A stretch of DNA of 64,000 nucleotides from a virus: IMG/VR virus record IMGVR_UViG_3300045988_010396, positions 32,001-96,000 of that record; one strand, 5' to 3'. Positions 1,188-21,699 of the stretch are shown here, piece by piece. A program made the position numbers and the translations under genes. Position 1 is the first letter of the stretch. Each line of letters opens with the position of its first letter. Under the pieces are notes generated by a model, which ran no database searches, was not told where the DNA came from, and saw nothing but the letters and a program-made list of their open reading frames with translations.

Positions 1188-1362
1188 ATAACTATGATTT
1201 ATAATAAACTAAATATATCTGTCCACCAAGAGTAAACATATTTACTATAGCCTCTCTTGGTATACCAAGTTCATTTGCCTGGCTTATTATACCCCTAATT
1301 GTCTGACCTACTATACAAGTCATTACTTTATTCTTCTCACCCATGTTCTAACTATTTTATAG

Positions 1363-1436
1363 TTTCGGGAGTAGGACTCGAACCTACAACCTCCAGCTTA
1401 TGAGGCTGGTTAGCTACCATTGCTAGCATCCCGAGA
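1363..1436 (-). tRNA. tRNA-Met (CAT)
   Basis: reverse complement has GGTTCGAGTCC T-arm, a 7-bp acceptor stem and anticodon loop CTCATAA. Confidence 0.8.
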
Positions 1437-1612
1437 TATTGCCAAGATTTGGTATGGTACTTGGCATTGTAAGGTTAACCTTATACTTACACCCCCAATC
1501 ACCTACACCTATTAAGCTGTTGTTTATACAGGTCAGCTCCTGTTGAGGTTTACCTAGTAGCATTGGGTGTTACTCTATCACTGTAGGTAAGACAGTTTTT
1601 AGTAACTTGTAG

Positions 1613-1686
1613 AGCCTCCCCTCAGAATCGAACTGAGACTCCCTGTTTACAAGGCAGGTTTGCTAAACCATTAACACTAAGGAGGC
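1613..1686 (-). tRNA. tRNA-Thr (TGT)
   Basis: acceptor GCCTCCT/GGGAGGC, T-loop TTCGATT, anticodon loop CTTGTAA. Confidence 0.7.
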
Positions 1687-1690
1687 ATAG

Positions 1691-1772
1691 TACCCCTGAC
1701 AGGAGTTGAACCTGCAATCCCCAAGGGCGTTGGTGTTTAAGACCAATGTGTATTCCATTCCACCACAGGGGC
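1691..1772 (-). tRNA. tRNA-Leu (TAA), type II
   Basis: 82 nt, acceptor GCCCCTG/CAGGGGT, anticodon loop CTTAAAC, 15-nt variable arm. Confidence 0.75.
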
Positions 1773-1779
1773 ATTATAC

Positions 1780-2232
1780 TTAGTAAGGTCTCAAATCACA
1801 TAACTCAAAGAGGTACTTGTATTTCAGTATATTATGTATGAATGTCTCACACTCAGACCTAATTCCTGCATATAGAGTTCCTTCTGGAATATTCTCATAG
1901 AACTTAGTAGTTCCTGCTTTGACCTCATTGATGAAGTCAATAGCATTAAGAGCATCACTAGGAGCACCTTTAATCACATTAGGTTGCATATGTCCAAGCA
2001 ATCCCTGATATTCCTCTGCCAATCCATCCTGATAGTCTGAGATAATACCTAGGAACTCATCTAGGTAAACATGAATATTCTTCTTAGGAGCTGCCCAATG
2101 CAGATTCTTACACTTAGTCTTCCAACCCTCCAGAAGGTTAATGAAGCTAATGAAGAATTGACTAGGGTTCTCATCTTGAGAAGGCTTGAACATCTCATCC
2201 ATTAGCTGATTATCTAGAAAAACACTATCCAT
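1780..2232 (-). CDS. hypothetical protein embedded in the tRNA array
   Basis: 150-aa ORF between two tRNA-Leu genes. Confidence 0.45.
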   Translation of the reverse strand: MDSVFLDNQLMDEMFKPSQDENPSQFFISFINLLEGWKTKCKNLHWAAPKKNIHVYLDEFLGIISDYQDGLAEEYQGLLGHMQPNVIKGAPSDALNAIDFINEVKAGTTKFYENIPEGTLYAGIRSECETFIHNILKYKYLFELCDLRPY

Positions 2233-2318
2233 TTCTCTAATTCTTTATTTGATACTGCAAAGTTAAGCTAAATATTTAACCTATGCAAGTAAATTACATT
2301 ATTTAACTAAATTATCTG

Positions 2319-2401
2319 TACCCTCCAAGGGACTTGAACCCTTATGTACTTAGTACACTAGTTTCTAAGACTAGCCTGTATACCCATTCCAGCAGGAGGG
2401 T
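2319..2401 (-). tRNA. tRNA-Leu (TAG), type II
   Basis: anticodon stem CTAGT/ACTAG, loop CTTAGAA, long variable arm, T-arm GGGTTCAAGTCCC. Confidence 0.75.
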
Positions 2402-2411
2402 GTAAGCTCTC

Positions 2412-2858
2412 TTATAGAGAGCTATATTCTTTTGTAGCATCAAAGCTAGGGCAAGCTTTTGAGCTAAAGTCTCTGTGCCCATGTATAGATGCTTGAGGGT
2501 ACTTAGTCTTTAACTCCTTAAGTAACTTAACTAATGACTGCTTCTGCTGAGCAGTCCTAGTATCTTTAGGTGTCTTGCCATCAGAAGCACATCCTCCTAT
2601 ATAGCATACTCCAATAGAGTTAGCATTATGGCCAGCACAGTGTGCACCTATAATAGACTCATCTCTACCTGTATGTATAGAACCATCTCTATATATTACA
2701 TAATGATAGCCTATATCAGAGAAGCCCCTTTGAAGGTGCCACTGTCTTATAGTATCTACACTATAGTCTTTACCTTCTGGTGTGGCACTACAATGTACTA
2801 TTATTTCATTTATTTTTCTTGCCATACATATATTATAAAACTTATCATGTTCCCCCAC
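2412..2858 (-). CDS. N-acetylmuramoyl-L-alanine amidase (Amidase_2/PGRP fold), probable endolysin
   Basis: IVHCSAT...DIGYHYVI..DG.I..GR...AH...NSIGV..IGG pattern typical of T7-lysozyme-like amidases. Confidence 0.8.
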   Translation of the reverse strand: MGEHDKFYNICMARKINEIIVHCSATPEGKDYSVDTIRQWHLQRGFSDIGYHYVIYRDGSIHTGRDESIIGAHCAGHNANSIGVCYIGGCASDGKTPKDTRTAQQKQSLVKLLKELKTKYPQASIHGHRDFSSKACPSFDATKEYSSL

Positions 2859-2922
2859 TAGGAGTCGAACCTAGCTCTCAGGATTAAAAGTCCAGAGTAT
2901 CCACCATCAATGCTTTGGGGGA
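2850..2922 (-). tRNA. tRNA-Lys (TTT)
   Basis: acceptor TCCCCCA/TGGGGGA, anticodon loop CTTTTAA, T-loop TTCGACT. Confidence 0.75.
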
Positions 2923-2994
2923 GTGAAGCAGGGTCTTTTTAAGAGGTTTCATCTTATTCCTAGGAAAGATTTTTACCCTGCACACCCTCTAGTG

Positions 2995-3068
2995 CGCCTC
3001 CACAAGGACTTGAACCTTGAGTCCCCTGCTTAAGGGGCAGGTGCTTTAACCAATTCAGCTATAGAGGC
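2995..3068 (-). tRNA. tRNA-Lys (CTT)
   Basis: acceptor GCCTCTA/TGGAGGC, anticodon stem CCTGC/GCAGG, loop CCCTTAA. Confidence 0.75.
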
Positions 3069-3074
3069 TTATAG

Positions 3075-3149
3075 ACTTGTAGGTGGGATTTGAACCCACG
3101 AATCACCAGTTTTGCAGACTGTGCCCTTAGACCACTCAGGTACTCCAAG
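3075..3149 (-). tRNA. tRNA-Cys (GCA)
   Basis: T-arm GTGGGTTCAAATCCCAC, anticodon loop CTGCAAA; one acceptor mismatch. Confidence 0.65.
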
Positions 3150-3153
3150 ATAG

Positions 3154-3231
3154 TACTGGCAGAGGGACTTGAACCCCCATGTGACCAATTACCCTTTCTA
3201 GACTGTATAAGAGTCAGGGGATATGCCAGTA
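3154..3231 (-). ncRNA. atypical tRNA-like element (anticodon unassigned)
   Basis: acceptor ACTGGCA/TGCCAGT and T-arm GGGGGTTCAAGTCCCTC are clear, but no canonical D-arm or anticodon arm; internal hairpin GACT-CTTATAC-AGTC. Confidence 0.4.
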
Positions 3232-3238
3232 TGTTGGG

Positions 3239-3311
3239 GTGTCTGATGGGAGTTGAACCCACACTACTTGGAGCCACAATCCAAGGCTCTGACCAATTAA
3301 GCTACAGACAC
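3239..3311 (-). tRNA. tRNA-His (GTG)
   Basis: extra 5' G(-1), discriminator C, anticodon stem TTGGA/TCCAA, loop TTGTGGC. Confidence 0.8.
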
Positions 3312-3313
3312 AG

Positions 3314-3385
3314 TTCTGATGAGTGGACTCGAACCACTAGCTACTGCCTTATGAGAGCAGCTTTCTACCATTGAAATACATCAGA
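3314..3385 (-). tRNA. tRNA with CAT anticodon (second copy; Met/fMet or Ile-lysidine type)
   Basis: acceptor TCTGATG/CATCAGA, anticodon loop CTCATAA. Confidence 0.75.
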
Positions 3386-3391
3386 ATATGT

Positions 3392-3465
3392 AGGTACAAT
3401 AGGACTTGAACCTATAACCTCTTGAATATCAGTCAAGTACTCTAACCAATTGAGTTATGTACCTA
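3392..3465 (-). tRNA. tRNA-Ile (GAT)
   Basis: acceptor AGGTACA/TGTACCT, anticodon stem CTTGA/TCAAG, loop CTGATAT. Confidence 0.8.
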
Positions 3466-3469
3466 TATG

Positions 3470-3542
3470 TGGGAAAGATAAGAATCGAACTTATATCCAA
3501 GGATTTTCAGTCCTCTGCATAGACCATCTTTGCTACTTTCCC
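3470..3542 (-). tRNA. tRNA-Phe (GAA)
   Basis: acceptor GGGAAAG/CTTTCCC, discriminator A, anticodon loop CTGAAAA. Confidence 0.75.
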
Positions 3543-3545
3543 ATT

Positions 3546-3619
3546 GCAGATAGAGTAAGACTCGAACTTACATCTAAGGGTTAACAGCCCCTTGTTCTAA
3601 CCTTTGAACTAAAGACCCA
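3546..3619 (-). tRNA. tRNA-Asn (GTT)-like; acceptor strands do not pair in my reading (possible pseudo-tRNA)
   Basis: D-arm, anticodon arm (loop CTGTTAA) and T-arm resemble E. coli tRNA-Asn, but 5' GGGTCTT does not pair with 3' TCTATCT. Confidence 0.4.
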
Positions 3620-3627
3620 TTATTTGT

Positions 3628-3699
3628 TGCTCCTACAAGACTCGAACTTGTGACCTTTGGTATGTAAAACCACTGTTCTTAACCACTGAACTAAGGAGC
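3628..3699 (-). tRNA. tRNA-Val (TAC)
   Basis: acceptor GCTCCTT/TAGGAGC, D-arm GTTC..GAAC, anticodon loop TTTACAT. Confidence 0.7.
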
Positions 3700-3783
3700 A
3701 TTGATAGGGTAGTTTCTTTAACCTCTAACTACCAAAAGAGGGTTCTAGCAAAAGCTCAACATTATGAAACACGGAAACTAATG

Positions 3784-3856
3784 TGGAGAATGAGAGACTC
3801 GAACCCTCTAATATAGCTTGCAAAGCTATCAGTTTAGCCAGTTAGCTTAATTCCCC
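3784..3856 (-). tRNA. tRNA-Ala (TGC)
   Basis: anticodon stem ATAGC/GCTAT, loop TTTGCAA, discriminator A. Confidence 0.75.
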
Positions 3857-3861
3857 ATTAG

Positions 3862-3934
3862 TATGGGTACTTGGACTCGAACCAAGGACAACTACATCCC
3901 AAATGTAGCATTCTACCTACTGAATTACACCCAT
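3862..3934 (-). tRNA. tRNA-Pro (TGG)
   Basis: anticodon stem CTACA/TGTAG, loop TTTGGGA, T-arm CTTGGTTCGAGTCCAAG. Confidence 0.8.
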
Positions 3935-3940
3935 ATATTG

Positions 3941-4023
3941 CGGAGAGATGAGGTCCCGACCCCCAAGCATTACTGCCCCCATTGTTTTCAAGACAAGTCC
4001 CAGTCCCACTGAGTTATCTCTCC
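3941..4023 (-). tRNA. tRNA-Ser (TGA), type II
   Basis: acceptor GGAGAGA/TCTCTCC, discriminator G, anticodon loop CTTGAAA, long variable arm. Confidence 0.7.
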
Positions 4024-4075
4024 ATTTGCCTACCTACCACTGTAGGATAGGACTTTGGTTTTGTTATAAGTGTGC

Positions 4076-4146
4076 AGACTATGAGGGAATTGAACCCTAA
4101 CCTTCACATTGACAGTGTGATATGCAAACCACTACACTACATAGTC
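4076..4146 (-). tRNA. tRNA-Asp (GTC)
   Basis: acceptor GACTATG/CATAGTC, anticodon stem TCACA/TGTGA, loop CTGTCAA. Confidence 0.7.
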
Positions 4147-4158
4147 TATATAATTTAG

Positions 4159-4230
4159 TACCCCCTGATAGAATCGAACTATCATTCTAAGTTTAGAAGA
4201 CTCATGTATTATCCATTATACTAAGAGGGC
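4159..4230 (-). tRNA. tRNA-Arg (TCT)
   Basis: D-arm GTAT..ATAC, anticodon loop CTTCTAA, T-arm GATAGTTCGATTCTATC. Confidence 0.7.
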
Positions 4231-4238
4231 ATCTCTAG

Positions 4239-4310
4239 TTGGGACTAGAGGTCTCGAACCTCTGCTATAAGAGCCAAAATCTCATGTGACTGCCACTACA
4301 CCAAGTCCCA
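4239..4310 (-). tRNA. tRNA-Gln (TTG)
   Basis: acceptor TGGGACT/AGTCCCA, anticodon loop TTTTGGC, T-arm AGAGGTTCGAGACCTCT. Confidence 0.7.
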
Positions 4311-5057
4311 CTCTGAATTACTCTGCAAAGGTAAGCAAATTTTTTGAATCTACCAAATTTTACTGTAAGAAATTTAATTATTAGAGTCCAGAAAGGTATT
4401 AAGATTACTCTTTTCTATATAATACCTTGTTACCTCTTTGTATTTTAATTAATAATGTGTTCTCAGTATCTACCTCATTAAATCCACCATCAAATATAGG
4501 GTCATAAGCCCAAGATACCATTACTCCATTAAAATACCTATATGTAAGAATATCGCCTCTCTGCAAAGTTATTTTCATAGCCCCATTAATTTATTAGCCC
4601 AACTTTCTGTATAGAAATGATAGTACCCTTCCTTATGATTGTCACAACAATGGATATAACCATTTAACCAAGCATAAAGTATTGAAGGAATACCTAAATT
4701 ATTAGGTATAATATATCCCTAGCCTGTGTTGCCAAGCTTGTTTCATATTAGTTCTGCACTTCGTTGGACCCGTTCTTGGTTATACCCCTAAAGCATATTT
4801 ACCTGTACCTTTTCTCAGTAGTATTGGTTATGCTAATCCAACTTATAACAAAACACTTTGTACCAGTATCGGGGACACCTCATTCCTATATATTGGAACT
4901 ACTACCCAACTTCTGCTCCATTACTTGATTACCTCATGGAGGATAGAGACATACTACCTATCTCTCTGGCAGGTGCAAAGGTAAGTATAAAATCTGATAT
5001 AACCAAATATTTTAAGAAAGTTTAACTATACACTATGGTCTAGGTTAAAAAATTTTA

Positions 5058-5074: not shown

Positions 5075-5410
5075 AATTTTTGTGGTACTTTATTGGTATG
5101 AGGGGGGTATAATATACTCACACCTCCCCTGCCTCTGGCTTGTTGGGGCTTGTCCCCGTGGGTTGAAATGATACATACTAACACTAGCCAAGATATTGTT
5201 AACTTATATTTATAACAAAAATGAGAGAAGAATTAGACATGCTCTTTCTGTTGGAGCATTTCAGTCTTGAAGATTTAGTAAAGGCTGAAGAAGAGTGTAT
5301 TGCTGCTATTAAAGCTTATCTCAAAAATGTGAAACATCACATGGATTATATAGCTATGCATCTATAATAAGATAAATAAAAGATTAGGGTGAGGGGGACT
5401 AACTCTCACC

Positions 5411-9403: not shown

Positions 9404-9489
9404 ACTCCCTTAGCTCAGTTGGTTCCGCAAGGCTTGAGAGCATCGGACTTTTAATCCGAGGGTCATGGGTTCGAGTCCCATAGGGAGTA
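9404..9489 (+). tRNA. tRNA-Lys (TTT)-like with a roughly 13-nt insertion in the D-loop
   Basis: acceptor ACTCCCT/AGGGAGT, anticodon stem TCGGA/TCCGA, loop CTTTTAA, T-arm ATGGGTTCGAGTCCCAT; D-arm GCTC...GAGC encloses extra CCGCAAGGCTTGA. Confidence 0.55.
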
Positions 9490-9506
9490 CTATTCATTTC
9501 ATTCAA

Positions 9507-9826
9507 GGGGCTGTATTTGGTCTTGACTGGTGGCTACTTGGTATGAGGACATGCAGAGACTGATGGAGAGACATCAAAACTTTAGGTGGCAACAGAATTT
9601 CTGCACCTGTAGCTCTTGCTGCTTAAGCAATCTACTGAGTTAGTCACTGACTTGGAAACAGAATAGTGACAAGACAAGATTTCTTGCATAGATAAATGCA
9701 AGTGGTGGACTATGTTGACAATCCAGTCAACCCCAGCAGAGAACCAACTGCATAATAAAGTGGTAAGCATGTGTAATCCTTATATTGAGAGCTATTAGGA
9801 CAGGGGTTCGACTCCCCTCAGCTCCA
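9507..9826 (+). ncRNA. ssrA: tmRNA (SsrA-like)
   Basis: 5' GGGGCTGTATTTGG...GACTGG and 3' GGACAGGGGTTCGACTCCCCTCAGCTCCA closely match the E. coli ssrA ends; acceptor GGGGCTG/CAGCTCC; internal tag frame GGC AAC AGA ATT TCT GCA CCT GTA GCT CTT GCT GCT TAA = ...NRISAPVALAA*. Confidence 0.8.
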
Positions 9827-9902
9827 GAGGCACGTTGTTAGATACTTCCACGTAGTGTGCCTTGGGTTAAAAGCTAGATTCTAACAAAAAAAAAAAGATT
9901 AT

Positions 9903-10205
9903 ATGTTAATAACAGAAAGAGCAAAAAGGAAAATAAATACTTTATTAGATAGTACTAATGATTGTATAAACTATCCTAAAACTAATAAAGATGGTTATGG
10001 GGATATTCAAGAGATTGTGGAGGGTAAAAAGCTCCACATGTTAGCTCATAGAGTATCTTATCAGTTATATACAGGAGAAGACATATCACCTGATGATATA
10101 ATATGTCATAGATGTGATAATCCTGCTTGTATTAATCCTAGACATTTGTTCAGAGGCACTCACTCAGATAATATTAAAGATAAGGTTTGTACCCATTATT
10201 CATAA
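9903..10205 (+). CDS. HNH homing endonuclease
   Basis: [13 protein letters not shown]...[15 protein letters not shown]...HSDN (HNH_3-type). Confidence 0.7.
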
Positions 10206-11005: not shown

Positions 11006-12429
11006 ATGTGTTCAAAAGTTAATCCTAACCTAAAGCCTGTACCTAAGTTTGAAAACACTCAACTGGCAGGTGGTTATGGTGCATTAGCTGCCAGGCAGTC
11101 CAATGTAGCATTGCTTAGAAGAGCAGTGCTGGCTAATCTCCTTTGAGAGGATGTAGCATATATGGATGGTGAGAGAGTAGCCAATGAAATACAGAGGTTA
11201 ATACCTCTGTGCCCTGCTGAGGATGTATATAATATAGCTCTTGAAGCTAGGTTAATGCAGAAACTGAGGCATACTCCATTGTTTATAGCAGTGGAAATGT
11301 GCAAGTATCCTGAACATAAGTTATTTGTTAAGGACTTGCTACCAAAGATAGTTACAAGAGCTGATATGCTCACTGACTTCTTGGCTATATATATATATAT
11401 TGGAAGGATGGCAAGCATCCTATCTGTAACCAAGCTAAGAAGGGTCTTGCTCTAGCCTTCCACAACTTCAATGAGTATAAGTTGGCTAAGTATGACAGAG
11501 ATGCTGCTATCAAGCTCAGGGATGTGATGTTCTTGGTACATGCAAAGCCTAGAAACCAGTATGAGCAGGAGTTGTTCAATAAGGTAGCTGAGAGAACTCT
11601 CACACCACCTGAGACATGGGAAGTCATGTTAAGTAGAGGTGATGACAAGAAGGCTACTTGGACTAAGCTCATTACAGAGGGTAAGATTGGAGGTCTGGCT
11701 ATGTTGAGAAACATAGCTAATATGCAGAAGGCCAATGTGGATAGAAGGACTATCCAAGATGGCCTTAAGACACTGAGAAGCTCAATGCTATTACCTCTTG
11801 ACTTCTGGAAGGCTGCTAGAATGAACCCAGCATTTGAGAGAGACATTGAGGATGCTATGATAGAGGCATATAAGAACTTACCTAAACTTCCTGGCAAGAC
11901 ACTATTTATAGTGGATGTATCAGGTTCTATGGGTTTTTTAACCTCTGGTAGCTCTCAGTTCAACAGGATGGACCAAGCTTGTGCTATGGCTATCTTGGCA
12001 GCTAATCAGTGTGAGGACTATGAGCTTGTAGCTACAGCAGGTAATGATGATTCTAAAATAAGTGCCTCAGAGTGGATTGAATATCCAAAGAGAGGTTTTG
12101 CTCTTGCTCCACAGATAATGGATACCAGGCATAGGATTAGTGGTGGAGGTATATTCACCAGGCAGTGCCTAGAGTGGTGTAAGGATAAGTTCAAAGACAA
12201 GAAGTTTGATAGAATTATCATATTCTCAGACTCTCAAGACTGTGACTATCCTGAGAAGAGAGTACCTAAACCATTTGGTACATATAACTATATTGTAGAT
12301 GTATCTGCTCATACAAGAGGAGTGAACTACAAGGGTGTATGGACTGCTGAGGTTTCAGGCTGGTCAGAACATTTCTTGACTTATATTGCAGCTCTTGAGG
12401 GATTGCAGAATAAGTTTGAGGAGCAATAA
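11006..12429 (+). pseudogene. rsr: Ro60 / TROVE-domain plus vWA RNA-binding protein (Rsr-like), interrupted
   Basis: N-terminus ...QLAGGYGAL.. (Ro60 NAGGY motif) runs into an in-frame TGA at 11144-11146; continues in the same frame to 11455; after the (TA)7 tract at 11386-11400 the homologous reading moves to frame 1 (...FHNFNEYKLAKYDRD..VMFLVHAKP like Ro60 ALAVTKYKQRNGW..LLRLSHLKP); AMLRNIANMQKA and vWA MIDAS FIVDVSGSMG match human Ro60 ALLRNLGKMTA / LLAVDVSASM. Confidence 0.8.
11386..11400. repeat. (TA)7 dinucleotide tract at the frame junction inside the Ro60 gene
   Basis: tatatatatatatat; losing one TA unit would join the upstream (frame 2) and downstream (frame 1) TROVE segments. Confidence 0.9.
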
Positions 12430-12780: not shown

Positions 12781-12918
12781 GCGGAGTAGCTAAATGGTTA
12801 AAGCAACACCCTTACAGAATTTATCTGGTAAAGCAGTAGTGGGTTGTCAGGGTTACTTCAAGGTTATAGCATTAGTTTTGGGTGCTAAAGAATGTAAGTT
12901 CGAGTCTTACCTCCGCCA
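12781..12918 (+). ncRNA. tRNA-like RNA with inserted module; candidate YrlA/Y-RNA-like (copy 2)
   Basis: acceptor GGCGGAG/CTCCGCC, D-arm GCTAAATGGTTAAAGC, T-arm GTAAGTTCGAGTCTTAC; anticodon-stem-like CACCC...GGGTG encloses about 66 nt containing GCAGTAGTGGGTTGTCAGGGTTACTTCAAGG. Confidence 0.6.
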
Positions 12919-13127
12919 CTTATTTACCTACCTCACCTAGCATAGTTATACAGGATAAGACCCATTATGATGGAGCACCGATGAAACTATCCTAGCCACG
13001 CTGGTATTGCTATTCAGTGAGTGAGAAAATGAATAGCCTCGAAGCATAGTGGAGATAACGTCAAGGAGTACCATCCTTAGCAGCTATGTAAAATTGGTTG
13101 ACAATCTGGAAAGACAGATAATAAAAT

Positions 13128-13880: not shown

Positions 13881-14252
13881 ATGAGTGAAATCAAGGTGAG
13901 TGTCAGTATTACACTACAAGGTGGTGTAATGCTGACCCAAGCTGAGGCTGAACAGCTTGAGAAGAACAAAGTAGGCACTGGTTATGACCTGACTAGAGTC
14001 AAGGTTAAGGACAAGGAGGGTAATGCTGATGTCCTCAACGTGAGAACTAGGAAGTCCAGAACTGCCACACAGACCATAAGCATGTACAAAGAGGCTTATG
14101 AGTACATGACAAGTAAGGATAGCTGTCCTACCAGTATCAAGCAGTATGTATGGGCTAAGATGAAGCCAGTACAGAGATTGGAGGTACATCTTAACTTGGT
14201 ATGTAAGCACCTCGGGGGCATCTCCTACACCTATAAGGTATTTGATGATTGA
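13881..14252 (+). CDS. hypothetical protein
   Basis: 123-aa ORF. Confidence 0.4.
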   Translation: MSEIKVSVSITLQGGVMLTQAEAEQLEKNKVGTGYDLTRVKVKDKEGNADVLNVRTRKSRTATQTISMYKEAYEYMTSKDSCPTSIKQYVWAKMKPVQRLEVHLNLVCKHLGGISYTYKVFDD

Positions 14253-20343: not shown

Positions 20344-20874
20344 ATGGCAAAAGCATTGATTTTAGCTAAGACTGGGTTTGGTAAATCCAGTTCACTGGTT
20401 GGTGTACCCTCTGCTGGTATATTAGGCTTGGACCCTAAGGAGACTTATCTCCTTAGCTGTGTTAATAAGCCTCTGCCTATCAAGGGTGCATCTAAGATTT
20501 ATGTGCCTATACCTATGCAGGGTATTACTCCTGCTAACTTAGGTTCAGTCATAGGTAAGGGCAACAGGATTATCACCAAGGATGCCAAGATTGTAGCTGC
20601 TGCTATAGAGTTGCTAATCAATTCACCCTTCAAGAACATAGTAGTTGATGATATGAACTATCTATCGCAGGACTACTATATGAAGAATGCCATGAAAGGT
20701 GGTTGGGACACTCCTAAGCAGATAGGTTACAATATGGGTCTTATCTTTGACCAGATTGACAATGTGCCTGAGGATAAGAACATTATCTGTATGGCTCACT
20801 TTGAGACCTACAAGGATAAGAATGGTGACTCCATCTCTTACAAGTACAAATCAACTGGTAACATGGTAGCATAA
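20344..20874 (+). CDS. small P-loop protein
   Basis: N-terminal AKTGFGKSS Walker-A-like motif. Confidence 0.35.
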   Translation: MAKALILAKTGFGKSSSLVGVPSAGILGLDPKETYLLSCVNKPLPIKGASKIYVPIPMQGITPANLGSVIGKGNRIITKDAKIVAAAIELLINSPFKNIVVDDMNYLSQDYYMKNAMKGGWDTPKQIGYNMGLIFDQIDNVPEDKNIICMAHFETYKDKNGDSISYKYKSTGNMVA

Positions 20875-21084
20875 CATCTGCCATTATCTATCTAATTGCT
20901 GGAACACCCTAAAGACAACTGAACTACAAAGTAATTGGTAACAATAAGCTTGAATGTTTGAAAATCAGTTGTATTCTTAGTGATGGAGAAATGGGCAATC
21001 AGCAGCCAAGGGACTCTACGAGTTCAAGGTTCATCGACTATCCCCTGTTGTGGGGGAGTACATTTATAAAGTAATCAATTATAT

Positions 21085-21699
21085 TTGGAAATGGTAGACA
21101 ATAGAGAAGTACACATTTATGCATTAAGACATCCTGATACCTTAGAAATAAGGTATGTCGGTAAAACAGTGAGAAAATTAAGTAGAAGGTTAGGGAATCA
21201 TATTGCAAATGCTAAAGGTAACCAGCACAATAAGCATTTAAGTAATTGGATTCTTAATATCTTGAAGGAAAATAAGAAACCTGTAATAGAACTCTTGGAA
21301 ACTTGTCAAAGTAATAACTGGCAAGAAAGAGAGCAATATTGGATTTCTCAATTTCCTAATCTGATAAATCTCACTGCTGGAGGAGATGGATGTGTAGGTT
21401 TTATTCATGATTCTAAAGCTATAGAAAAGATTAGACAATCTAAATTTGGTACTAAACATTCTGTAGAATTTAAGGAAGCTATGAGTAAAAGGCTTAAAGG
21501 TGTGCCTCTTAGTGAAGAACATAAAAGTAAAATAGGTTTAGCTAATAAGGGAAGGAAGGCTTCGGAAACTGCAAGAAAGAGGCTATCAGAATCCCACAAA
21601 GGTATTACTCAGAGTGAGGAATCCAAAAGAAAAAGAAGTGAATCTATTAAACTTTGGTGGACTAAGAGAAAGTCTATTGAAGATATAGTCAAATCTTAA
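21085..21699 (+). CDS. GIY-YIG homing endonuclease
   Basis: HIYAL...IRYVGKT...R...N (GIY-YIG) with C-terminal K/R-rich NUMOD-like repeats. Confidence 0.75.
   Translation: MEMVDNREVHIYALRHPDTLEIRYVGKTVRKLSRRLGNHIANAKGNQHNKHLSNWILNILKENKKPVIELLETCQSNNWQEREQYWISQFPNLINLTAGGDGCVGFIHDSKAIEKIRQSKFGTKHSVEFKEAMSKRLKGVPLSEEHKSKIGLANKGRKASETARKRLSESHKGITQSEESKRKRSESIKLWWTKRKSIEDIVKS

Follow-up and report, generated by a model that had tools for sequence, protein, structure and literature searches.

The window analyzed here is a 64,000-nt stretch of viral DNA (IMG/VR record IMGVR_UViG_3300045988_010396, record positions 32,001-96,000; unlabeled coordinates are window positions). It carries a transfer-messenger RNA (tmRNA) gene at 9507-9826 that is intact, conserved and selected for both structure and tag frame. 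A gene for tRNA-Lys(UUU) with a 13-nt insert in its D-loop lies directly upstream at 9404-9489, and an open reading frame (ORF) for an HNH endonuclease follows at 9903-10205. The overall explanation is a functional phage tmRNA, a decoding-competent tRNA-Lys that contains an insert and a mobile HNH gene, and we give this reading a probability of roughly 0.8.

ARAGORN called a one-piece tmRNA gene of 320 nt on the plus strand at 9507-9826, and the Rfam model RF00023 matched 9507-9829 over model positions 1-374 of 374 with 83.1 bits (E = 9.6e-31; gathering score, 47 bits). These calls agree with an initial annotation, made from the letters of the window, that had placed a tmRNA with 5′ GGGGCUG and 3′ GGACAGGGGUUCGACUCCCCUCAGCUCCA ends in this segment. 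Sequence and family alignment define an acceptor stem in which GGGGCUG (9507-9513) pairs with CAGCUCC (9819-9825), followed by the discriminator A at 9826; the 3′ end in its fuller reading is GGAC-AGGGG-UUCGACU-CCCCU-CAGCUCC-A. The gene lacks an encoded CCA because GAG comes next. The 7-bp acceptor stem, a G3·U70 pair, the discriminator A and a canonical T-arm make up a tRNA-Ala-like domain. Neither a missing model match nor a fragment of a host ssrA gene was found: the gene is full length and has the tRNA-like domain, a tag ORF and covarying helices.

Homologues were collected from IMG/VR with a 23-nt degenerate pattern built on a conserved block of the gene. At least 61 IMG/VR contigs carry a homologue, most of them 90-103 kb and matching crAss-like genomes in size, and homologues are also present in three distinct GenBank crAss-like genomes. 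Both gene ends were found at 54 loci, where the acceptor stem pairs 7/7 in each and gene lengths are 300-450 nt. An alignment of 48 distinct intact sequences was used for a structure test of 73 pairs comprising P1, P2, the hairpin at the position of pseudoknot 1 (PK1), the post-tag helix, three 3′ hairpins, one pseudoknot and the T-arm. Standard pairs form in 96.6% of cells; sliding the 3′ partners by 1-3 columns lowers this to 41-49% and reduces the compensatory pairs from 33/73 to 0-8. None of 500 shuffles of this alignment matched the observed pairing or the covariation score. G3·U70 is present in 48/48 sequences, and acceptor pairs 6 and 7 covary (AU/UA and UA/GC).

The individual helices, all on the plus strand, were located in the window gene from the same alignment. 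The 5′ strand of P2 (9527-9554) pairs with 9767-9798 through 27 pairs, with 99-100% of cells paired and eight compensatory pairs. The hairpin UGAUG-GAGAGA-CAUCA (9561-9576) aligns to the PK1 hairpin of the Rfam model and has one compensatory pair, AU to UA, in five sequences. The post-tag helix UCACUG/UAGUGA with its conserved loop CUUGGAAACAGAA (9644-9669) is paired in 100% of cells with one compensatory pair, the hairpin CUUGCAU-AGAUAA-AUGCAAG (9683-9702) has compensatory changes in 6/7 pairs, and the T-arm AGGGG-UUCGACU-CCCCU (9802-9818) is 100% paired with 4/5 pairs compensatory. A 3′ pseudoknot at 9736-9764 is built from the interleaved stems GCAG/CUGC (tmRNA positions 230-233/242-245) and ACC/GGU (237-239/256-258). 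At least one 3′ pseudoknot is supported because both interleaved stems are 100% paired and contain compensatory changes (3/4 and 1/3 pairs). A PK2 candidate, GGAAA with UUUCU, was dropped; it overlaps a covarying hairpin and is invariant in the family. The initial annotation had left the resume codon and the pseudoknots for confirmation, and the outcome is divided: the GGC resume codon and one covarying 3′ pseudoknot stand, whereas PK1 is represented by a hairpin only.

The tag reading frame occupies 9588-9626 on the plus strand. It starts with the resume codon GGC (9588-9590), contains the 12 codons of GNRISAPVALAA and ends at UAA (9624-9626), reading GGC AAC AGA AUU UCU GCA CCU GUA GCU CUU GCU GCU UAA. 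The mini-ORF ending in PVALAA-TAA that had been noticed initially is therefore present, and its frame is conserved in comparison with 47 other distinct family members. The ORF is placed at these coordinates because its register is conserved in the 48 relatives and because the Rfam alignment sets the window GGC on the resume codon of RF00023. A frame in fixed register follows the conserved …CAAAAC-AAUAACU context in 48/48 distinct homologues. Family tags are 8, 9, 12 or 13 codons long, and therefore all indels are multiples of three; relative to cr106_1, the window tag region has an 11-nt insertion plus a 1-nt shift that restore the frame. All family tags end in -AA or -VA followed by a stop, which is UAA except for UGA in contig L056. 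The C-termini are RVAA, RAAA, KMAA, LMAA, VVA or ALAA, and the tags besides GNRISAPVALAA of the window lineage are DNTYRVAA, DNTYKVAA, DNTSYRVAA, GNTSYRVAA, GNTSYKVAA, GNTSYRAAA, GNTYRAAA, GNSYRVVA, GTSYKMAA, AKSYRMTPALMAA and AEVDETPVRMAA. ARAGORN reports a different tag, ASGGLC*, at gene positions 192-212. This candidate was rejected because its stretch is not conserved, whereas the tags of every relative line up with the GNRISAPVALAA frame. By these comparisons, the frame resumed at GGC is taken as the correct tag, and the default ARAGORN call as wrong.

The nearest relatives place the window among crAss-like phages. The tmRNA region is 72-73% identical to cr106_1 and to Kehishuvirus 'tikkala' (Steigviridae), with cr106_1 at 73% over the whole gene by blastn, and its first 88 nt match cr128_1. 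The host of 'tikkala' is Bacteroides cellulosilyticus. A 20-kb stretch elsewhere in the window matches IAS virus (13% coverage at 88.5%) and, more weakly, Bacteroides crAss-like phages. Because its nearest relatives are cr106_1, 'tikkala', cr128_1 and IAS virus, we assign the window to a crAss-like phage (Crassvirales) of Bacteroidales that has no close sequenced relative in GenBank. The rarity claimed initially for a phage-borne tmRNA was overstated. tmRNAs are documented in huge phages (PMC7162821) and in mycobacteriophages (PMC11915505), the gene is common in the present crAss-like clade (61 IMG/VR contigs), and the cr106_1 gene is already annotated as 'transfer-messenger RNA, SsrA' in GenBank MT774378. 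Phage tmRNAs are already known, and the window gene is a further member with a distinctive tag. No paper discussing the crAss-like tmRNA family was found, and tmRNA goes unmentioned in the principal comparative work on crAss-like genomes (PMC7886860).

Host tmRNAs were sought with a back-translated pattern for GE(T/N)NYALAA, the tag expected in these bacteria. The pattern matched more than 120 genomes, nearly all Bacteroidota (Bacteroides, Parabacteroides, Segatella, Prevotella and Muribaculaceae). The Bacteroidales tmRNAs are 394-400 nt long, resume at GGC and encode exactly GE(T/N)NYALAA. The window gene shares with them the GGC and the final codons GCU CUU GCU GCU UAA, and its last five tag-frame codons are identical to those of Bacteroides sp. 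GD17. The comparison with the host SsrA tag that was suggested at the outset thus gave a mixed answer: the ALAA end is the same, and the tag body GNRISAPV is unlike GE(T/N)NY. In global alignments the window tmRNA shares about 53% of columns with eight Bacteroidales tmRNAs, compared with 57-75% within the phage family.

The second RNA gene, at 9404-9489 on the plus strand, is a tRNA-Lys(UUU) of 86 nt including discriminator A, with CCA not encoded (Rfam RF00005, 66.3 bits). It consists of the acceptor stem ACUCCCU/AGGGAGU, the D-stem GCUC/GAGC, the anticodon arm UCGGA-CUUUUAA-UCCGA and the T-arm AUGGG-UUCGAGU-CCCAU, and is identified as Lys(UUU) because the anticodon loop is CUUUUAA. The initial reading of a tRNA with a TTT anticodon and a 13-nt hairpin in the D-loop is borne out. 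The RF00005 alignment has a 14-nt insertion at one D-loop model position and posterior probabilities near 1 at the remaining positions. Rfam alignment and family conservation place the 13-nt insert at 9424-9436 between U20 and A21 (UCCGCAAGGCUUG); within it, 9425-9432 form a mini-hairpin, CC-GCAA-GG, capped by a GNRA tetraloop. The insert extends the D-loop to 21 nt; a D-loop is usually about 7-11 nt. All other cloverleaf features are present (7/4/5/5-bp stems, G18-G19, the T-loop UUCGAnU and a 7-nt anticodon loop with U33 and a purine at 37), and the gene is filed as a variant tRNA-Lys(UUU) outside the standard D-loop length. ARAGORN reports 'tRNA-???' for 9404-9489 because of the insert. Identity elements for bacterial lysyl-tRNA synthetase (LysRS) are the anticodon U34-U35-U36 and the discriminator A73, and the UUU anticodon and discriminator A are found in the window tRNA and in all complete family members.

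Searches for the insert show that it is a recurrent feature of gut phage tRNAs. By shuffling of the window, the insert pattern is expected zero times. Viral contigs were searched for tRNA-Lys(UUU) genes whose D-loop is enlarged, and the matches were L009 and L054, which belong to the window lineage, and non-crAss-like contigs of 128-380 kb. A looser pattern that left the insert stem positions free returned 15 viral and 30 metagenome contigs of 88-498 kb, mostly from human gut. With the window copy there are 46 insert-bearing genes, 26 of them distinct. The insert reads U-CC-GNAA-GG-CU-W-G in 46/46, and all complete genes have the Lys(UUU) anticodon loop. The free-stem pattern recovered only UCC...GGCU, and only in Lys(UUU) genes. 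Variation is confined to the N of GNAA, where C, U, G and A all occur, and to the one W position; the occurrence of all four bases at N between fixed neighbors is the behavior expected of a GNRA tetraloop. The initial annotation was right about the insert and underrated it, since the sequence is conserved in 46 tRNA-Lys(UUU) genes from different gut phage lineages.

The cloverleaf was tested with 12 distinct homologues. Pairs form in 99.3% of cells, 14/23 pairs are compensatory, and 0/500 shuffles score as high. The acceptor, anticodon and T stems covary, and the D-arm and insert are invariant; the anticodon loop, G18-G19, T-loop and discriminator A do not change across 12-26 distinct sequences. 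An extended D-stem, CUCAG with UUGAG, was rejected on inspection; in some relatives an A at the W position breaks it. The insert-bearing gene of the large contigs lies inside arrays of 10-23 tRNA genes, and it is the sole Lys gene in some of them (L069, L071), which argues that it decodes. No close relatives of these contigs are in GenBank, where Prevotella Lak megaphages give the best partial matches. The exact insert motif had no match in 185,579 bacterial and archaeal genomes, one per species, a search that diverged inserts would escape. No insert-bearing match was found by blastn among 50,697 GenBank phage records, nor was such an insert found described in a literature search on phage tRNA D-loop insertions. 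As far as these searches show, this tRNA-Lys(UUU), whose D-loop contains a GNRA hairpin, appears to be an undescribed, phage-restricted tRNA variant.

The proposed role of the tmRNA follows the bacterial model. The segment 9404-9826 is probably a small RNA module expressed as one transcript and cut into tRNA and tmRNA by host tRNA-processing enzymes. By analogy with bacterial tmRNA, the host CCA-adding enzyme would complete the 3′ end, and host alanyl-tRNA synthetase (AlaRS) would charge it with alanine through G3·U70 and the discriminator A. With host SmpB, the charged tmRNA would then enter stalled ribosomes whose A site is empty, and translation would resume at GGC 9588 and append (A)GNRISAPVALAA, which ends in ALAA like the degradation tag of the host. 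SmpB was not found in the 64-kb window (best tblastn E = 0.9), a weak search with an E. coli SmpB query over part of the genome; use of host SmpB is therefore the likely arrangement. The phage could gain rescue capacity when mRNA decay or RNA-targeting defenses yield non-stop or stalled complexes. The same interpretation, added rescue during infection, has been given to huge-phage tmRNAs (PMC7162821), and the role against mRNA-cleaving defenses that was proposed initially is plausible. A link to stop-codon recoding, under which read-through would produce non-stop stalls, found no support: the stops of long ORFs are TAA (26), TGA (10) and TAG (6), and there is no suppressor tRNA, the tRNA at 3547-3618 that ARAGORN missed being Asn(GUU).

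For the tRNA, the hairpin placed after G18-G19-U20 probably projects outward from the elbow. The region after G18-G19-U20 is expected to face solvent at the outer elbow of a tRNA, and a mini-hairpin could therefore be tolerable there. tRNA-Lys(UUU) is the isoacceptor attacked by PrrC. It is also the primary target of the PARIS nuclease AriB, which phage T5 escapes with its own variant tRNA-Lys (PMC11464382). AriB is reported to make base-specific contacts with U16-U17 of the D-loop and to cleave E. coli tRNA-Lys less well after the U16C change, which gives it the base of T5 (PMC12409363). Evasion of retron or PrrC-type nucleases by phage tRNAs is also described (PMC11555353). Because AriB contacts the D-loop of tRNA-Lys(UUU) and T5 escapes with a variant tRNA-Lys, we favor a counter-defense role in which the hairpin would block a host nuclease that recognizes tRNA-Lys(UUU) and preserve use by LysRS and the ribosome, although we put this somewhat below even odds. 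The wider proposal is more doubtful still. It holds that a 13-nt elbow plug fixed in crAss-like phages and in 130-500 kb jumbo gut phages might define a new class of counter-defense tRNA, which in this phage, as one module with the tmRNA, would sustain translation under RNA-targeting immunity.

Two other accounts of the tmRNA gene were weighed. The phage RNA could act as a decoy or inhibitor that occupies SmpB, AlaRS or ribosomes, or as a sensor or regulator that damps or redirects host trans-translation. There is a precedent in the coding-less tmRNA of mycobacteriophage DS6A, which inhibits endogenous tmRNA in E. coli according to work cited in PMC11915505. The window tmRNA is also shortened and lacks a full PK1, and most family tags (such as DNTYRVAA and GNTSYRVAA) differ from the host GE(T/N)NYALAA. 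A pure decoy, however, needs neither a reading frame kept in 48/48 sequences, with indels in multiples of three, nor a conserved hydrophobic -AA end, and the window tag ends in ALAA exactly as the host tag does. Such careful preservation of the tag frame makes a DS6A-like role unlikely. The segment might instead be a piece of host ssrA, either an attP-type remnant, a recent capture or an assembly chimera. Temperate elements often integrate into ssrA and carry its 3′ end (PMC11915505), and the five final tag-frame codons shared with Bacteroides sp. GD17 would fit such an origin. Yet both ends and all domains are present, the divergence from the eight Bacteroidales tmRNAs is large (about 53% of columns shared, about 75 nt shorter), and the same gene recurs in a conserved phage context in at least 61 viral contigs and three GenBank crAss-like genomes, with flanks of phage sequence. 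We attach almost no weight to a host origin of this kind, and the window tmRNA reads as an old, phage-resident lineage of the Bacteroidota type.

The insert-bearing tRNA raises similar alternatives. It may be a disabled pseudogene or a non-decoding tRNA-like RNA, such as a nuclease decoy or an enzyme handle, with decoding left to the tRNA-Lys(UUU) at 2849-2922. The window does contain this second tRNA-Lys(UUU), of normal length, as well as a tRNA-Lys(CUU); the 21-nt D-loop is beyond the normal range, and strict conservation of the insert without covariation fits a protein-recognition site as well as a structural plug. On the other side, all four stems are kept through compensatory changes in 12-26 distinct sequences with the key loops and discriminator A invariant, and some large phage arrays have no other Lys gene. 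Neither a perfect acceptor stem nor a perfect Lys anticodon loop would be required of a decoy, though a nuclease decoy might need them. We consider loss of decoding a rather unlikely outcome, somewhat less so than the decoy role for the tmRNA. A far less probable account treats the 13 nt as an intervening sequence removed after transcription to leave a normal 73-nt tRNA-Lys. Interrupted RNA genes are common in these phages, as seen in the group I introns in the tmRNA of relatives and at 20774-21155 of the window and in the 112-144-nt tRNA matches. Here, though, the insert sits in a loop where it is structurally tolerable and is conserved in a manner unlike typical spacers. A length of 13 nt is far below the size of a self-splicing element, and bacteria are not known to possess a bulge-helix-bulge splicing endonuclease.

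Against the reading of a functional tmRNA beside a decoding-competent, nuclease-evading tRNA stand several observations. Where PK1 would lie there is a single 5-bp hairpin, and no second stem was found. Compared with bacterial tmRNAs the central region is short, and the middle of the gene aligns poorly to RF00023. The deficit of about 75 nt relative to host tmRNAs and the reduced PK1 bear on the efficiency with which the RNA would work with host SmpB and ribosomes. The 'tikkala' gene, in a cultured relative, has a degenerate 3′ acceptor strand, and loss of the gene can therefore occur. On the tRNA side, the 2-bp stem of the insert is invariant and the hairpin itself has no covariation support, and the isolated minimum-free-energy fold is no more stable than shuffles (z = -0.99). 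Adjacency of tRNA-Lys and tmRNA is limited to the window lineage; in other relatives the upstream slot is taken by tRNA-Arg, by over-long tRNA-like genes or by sequence that is not tRNA. Because adjacency is lineage-specific, functional coupling of the two RNAs is unsupported. Evasion of a nuclease is something we infer, and no tRNA-Lys nuclease is known for these hosts.

The genes around the two RNAs are arranged as follows. A 17-nt spacer (9490-9506, plus strand) separates the tRNA from the tmRNA, and no sigma-70-like promoter or intrinsic terminator was detected between them in a scan that does not cover Bacteroides or phage promoters. The HNH gene that had been noted 3′ of the tmRNA was found as a free-standing ORF of 100 aa on the plus strand, starting 77 nt beyond the tmRNA; it matches Pfam HNH_3 (PF13392; E = 4.8e-7, 29.8 bits compared with a cut-off of 24.8) and has a further sub-threshold match to zf-His_Me_endon. 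Contig L054 is 98.9% identical to the window and becomes unrelated exactly past 9826, and L009 tracks the window only to 10183, inside the HNH ORF. The tails of L054 and L009 have no match elsewhere in the window. The tmRNA 3′ end is therefore a recombination breakpoint, at which a hypervariable segment begins; the HNH gene belongs to this segment and is probably a mobile endonuclease.

Further 3′, the plus strand carries a TROVE/Ro60-like gene at 11006-12429 that includes a vWA domain (Pfam TROVE on 11482-12429, E = 6e-10). It appears disrupted in the window by an in-frame TGA at 11144-11146 and by a frameshift around 11420-11450, within a (TA)n run. The TROVE gene of cr106_1 is intact (473 aa) and lies equally far 3′ of the tmRNA in that phage, and the synteny of tmRNA and TROVE is conserved on this basis; the region may be an RNA quality-control neighborhood. 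The idea that the tRNA-Lys is a Y-RNA-like partner of the TROVE product was not favored: the Rfam scan gave no Y-RNA match for this tRNA, and its anticodon arm and ends are normal, unlike those of YrlA-type RNAs. A lone tRNA-Pro is located 3′ of the TROVE gene (12846-12919, plus strand), and a match to a group I catalytic intron lies at 20774-21155 on the plus strand (51 bits compared with the gathering score of 50, Rfam). An array of 18 tRNA genes occupies 1362-4310 on the minus strand and includes tRNA-Lys(UUU) at 2849-2922, tRNA-Lys(CUU) at 2994-3068 and, at 3547-3618 on the minus strand, a tRNA-Asn(GUU) that ARAGORN missed and Rfam found. The insert-bearing Lys(UUU) gene is a second copy because the array contains a canonical one.

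Relatives of the tmRNA vary in length and continuity. The family range of 300-450 nt is due to inserted blocks of 60-150 nt that are specific to lineages and fall at one central-domain site, 3′ of the post-tag helix and 5′ of the hairpin that follows (alignment columns ~275-485); the window tmRNA is a short form. The homologue in Kehishuvirus 'tikkala' (OQ198717, 4004-4295) is annotated as two 'hypothetical protein' coding sequences. Its 3′ acceptor strand and T-stem are degenerate (…GGGUUCGAGUCCAACCAUCCCCA), it falls below threshold for ARAGORN and Rfam, and this copy may be in decay. A group I intron (Rfam, 86-88 bits) splits the tmRNA in cr128_1 (L003) and in five IMG/VR relatives (L014, L037, L041, L053 and L064). 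The split gene of cr128_1 (MT774392, 4001-5317) has exon 1 at 4001-4430 and exon 2 at 5300-5317 and is unannotated in the GenBank record. The insertion of ~870 nt lies in the T-loop between UU and C (GGGUU^CGAAUCCC), with the junction set by intron-less siblings (L015 and others). By our reading of the numbering, we take this site to be T-loop subsite 3. Introns at this subsite are recorded only from class Bacteroidia (PMC11915505), which suggests intron exchange between phage and host. An unrelated phage tmRNA is present on one of the insert-tRNA-Lys contigs among L205-L234 (locus 13899-14232, ARAGORN tag ARVINMTPATTVAIAA).

Other unusual tRNA genes were noted in the same phages. Over-long tRNA-like genes of 86-88 nt lie directly 5′ of the tmRNA in cr106_1 (L001, 3904-3991) and in L004, L019, L021 and L024. 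ARAGORN types them as Ile(GAU) or Trp(CCA); their acceptor, D and T arms are normal, and the anticodon-arm region is enlarged and aberrant. Rfam tRNA matches of 112-144 nt, with insertions of 40-70 nt, occur in the crAss-like relatives L045 (1070-1211), L064 (11596-11707) and L007 (2329-2472). In the metagenome contigs L213 and L219, the insert-bearing tRNA-Lys loses tRNA similarity right after …GACUUU in the anticodon loop and may be intron-interrupted or truncated. The tRNAs Trp, Pro, Met and Arg are normally class I. The large insert-tRNA contigs also encode such class-I-type isoacceptors with long variable-region arms: Trp of 91 nt (L068 2915-3005, L084 2124-2214), Pro of 89 nt (L069 6050-6138), Met of 82 nt (L069 1083-1164) and Arg of 85 nt (L084 1269-1353). 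The extra arm of the long tRNA-Trp has a GAAA loop.

crAss-like phages are among the most abundant human-gut viruses, and a sizeable clade of them keeps its own trans-translation RNA under purifying selection. The phage tags are specific and distinguishable from the host tag, which makes tagging testable by mass spectrometry in culturable Bacteroides/crAss-like phage systems. The insert-bearing tRNA is the more novel half of the finding. Its insert is conserved, restricted to Lys(UUU), common to unrelated gut phages and, as an exact motif, absent from the cellular genomes scanned, which points to specific selection on one isoacceptor. Should the insert block tRNA-Lys nucleases, it would give phages a new structural way to evade immunity and serve as a probe for matching defense systems in Bacteroidota. 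ARAGORN miscalls both genes (wrong tag and 'tRNA-???'), and routine phage annotation pipelines will therefore mislabel such genes.

Compared with bacterial tmRNAs (RF00023) and the SsrA RNA of Bacteroidales, the window gene has the same 7-bp acceptor stem with G3·U70, discriminator A, T-arm of the form GGUUCGAnUCC and long P2. It also shares the resume context …UAnnU|GGC, the tag end ALAA-UAA, at least one 3′ pseudoknot and a CCA that is not encoded. It differs from Bacteroidales SsrA in being phage-encoded, in its length (320 compared with 394-400 nt) and in a tag body unrelated to that of the host, and from a standard tmRNA, which has four pseudoknots (PK1 5′ of the tag and PK2-PK4 3′ of it), in a PK1 that appears reduced to a 5-bp hairpin and in apparently fewer central pseudoknots. 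Like the tmRNAs of cr106_1 and other phages, it is a virus-borne ssrA among phage tRNA genes, and it is homologous to the cr106_1 gene. The window lineage departs from the cr106_1 family in its tag, which has 12 codons and ends in ALAA as in the host (the usual family tag is (D/G)NT(S)YRVAA, with 8-9 codons), and from other phage tmRNAs in its acceptor variant GGGGCUG/CAGCUCC and in its neighbors, an insert-bearing tRNA-Lys and an HNH gene.

The tRNA-Lys resembles class II tRNAs (Leu, Ser and Tyr, with their long variable arm) in having nucleotides beyond the 76-nt cloverleaf that form a small hairpin, although its insert sits at D-loop position 20a/b and not in the variable region. Archaeal and red-algal tRNAs with D-loop introns also have extra nucleotides and a small hairpin beyond the 76-nt cloverleaf (PMC3978253). 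The window insert differs from them in lacking a bulge-helix-bulge motif and in its bacterial-phage setting, and it is unlike both the extra-arm and the D-loop-intron tRNAs in that its sequence is conserved across lineages and occurs in one isoacceptor only. A parallel is found in phage counter-defense tRNAs such as the T5 tRNA-Lys(UUU) that resists PARIS AriB: the window tRNA, too, is a phage-encoded tRNA-Lys(UUU) that deviates from the cellular consensus in the D-loop, a site that a tRNA-Lys nuclease reportedly contacts. Known counter-defense tRNAs carry point substitutions in the anticodon stem-loop or at U16, whereas the window tRNA has a 13-nt structured insert.

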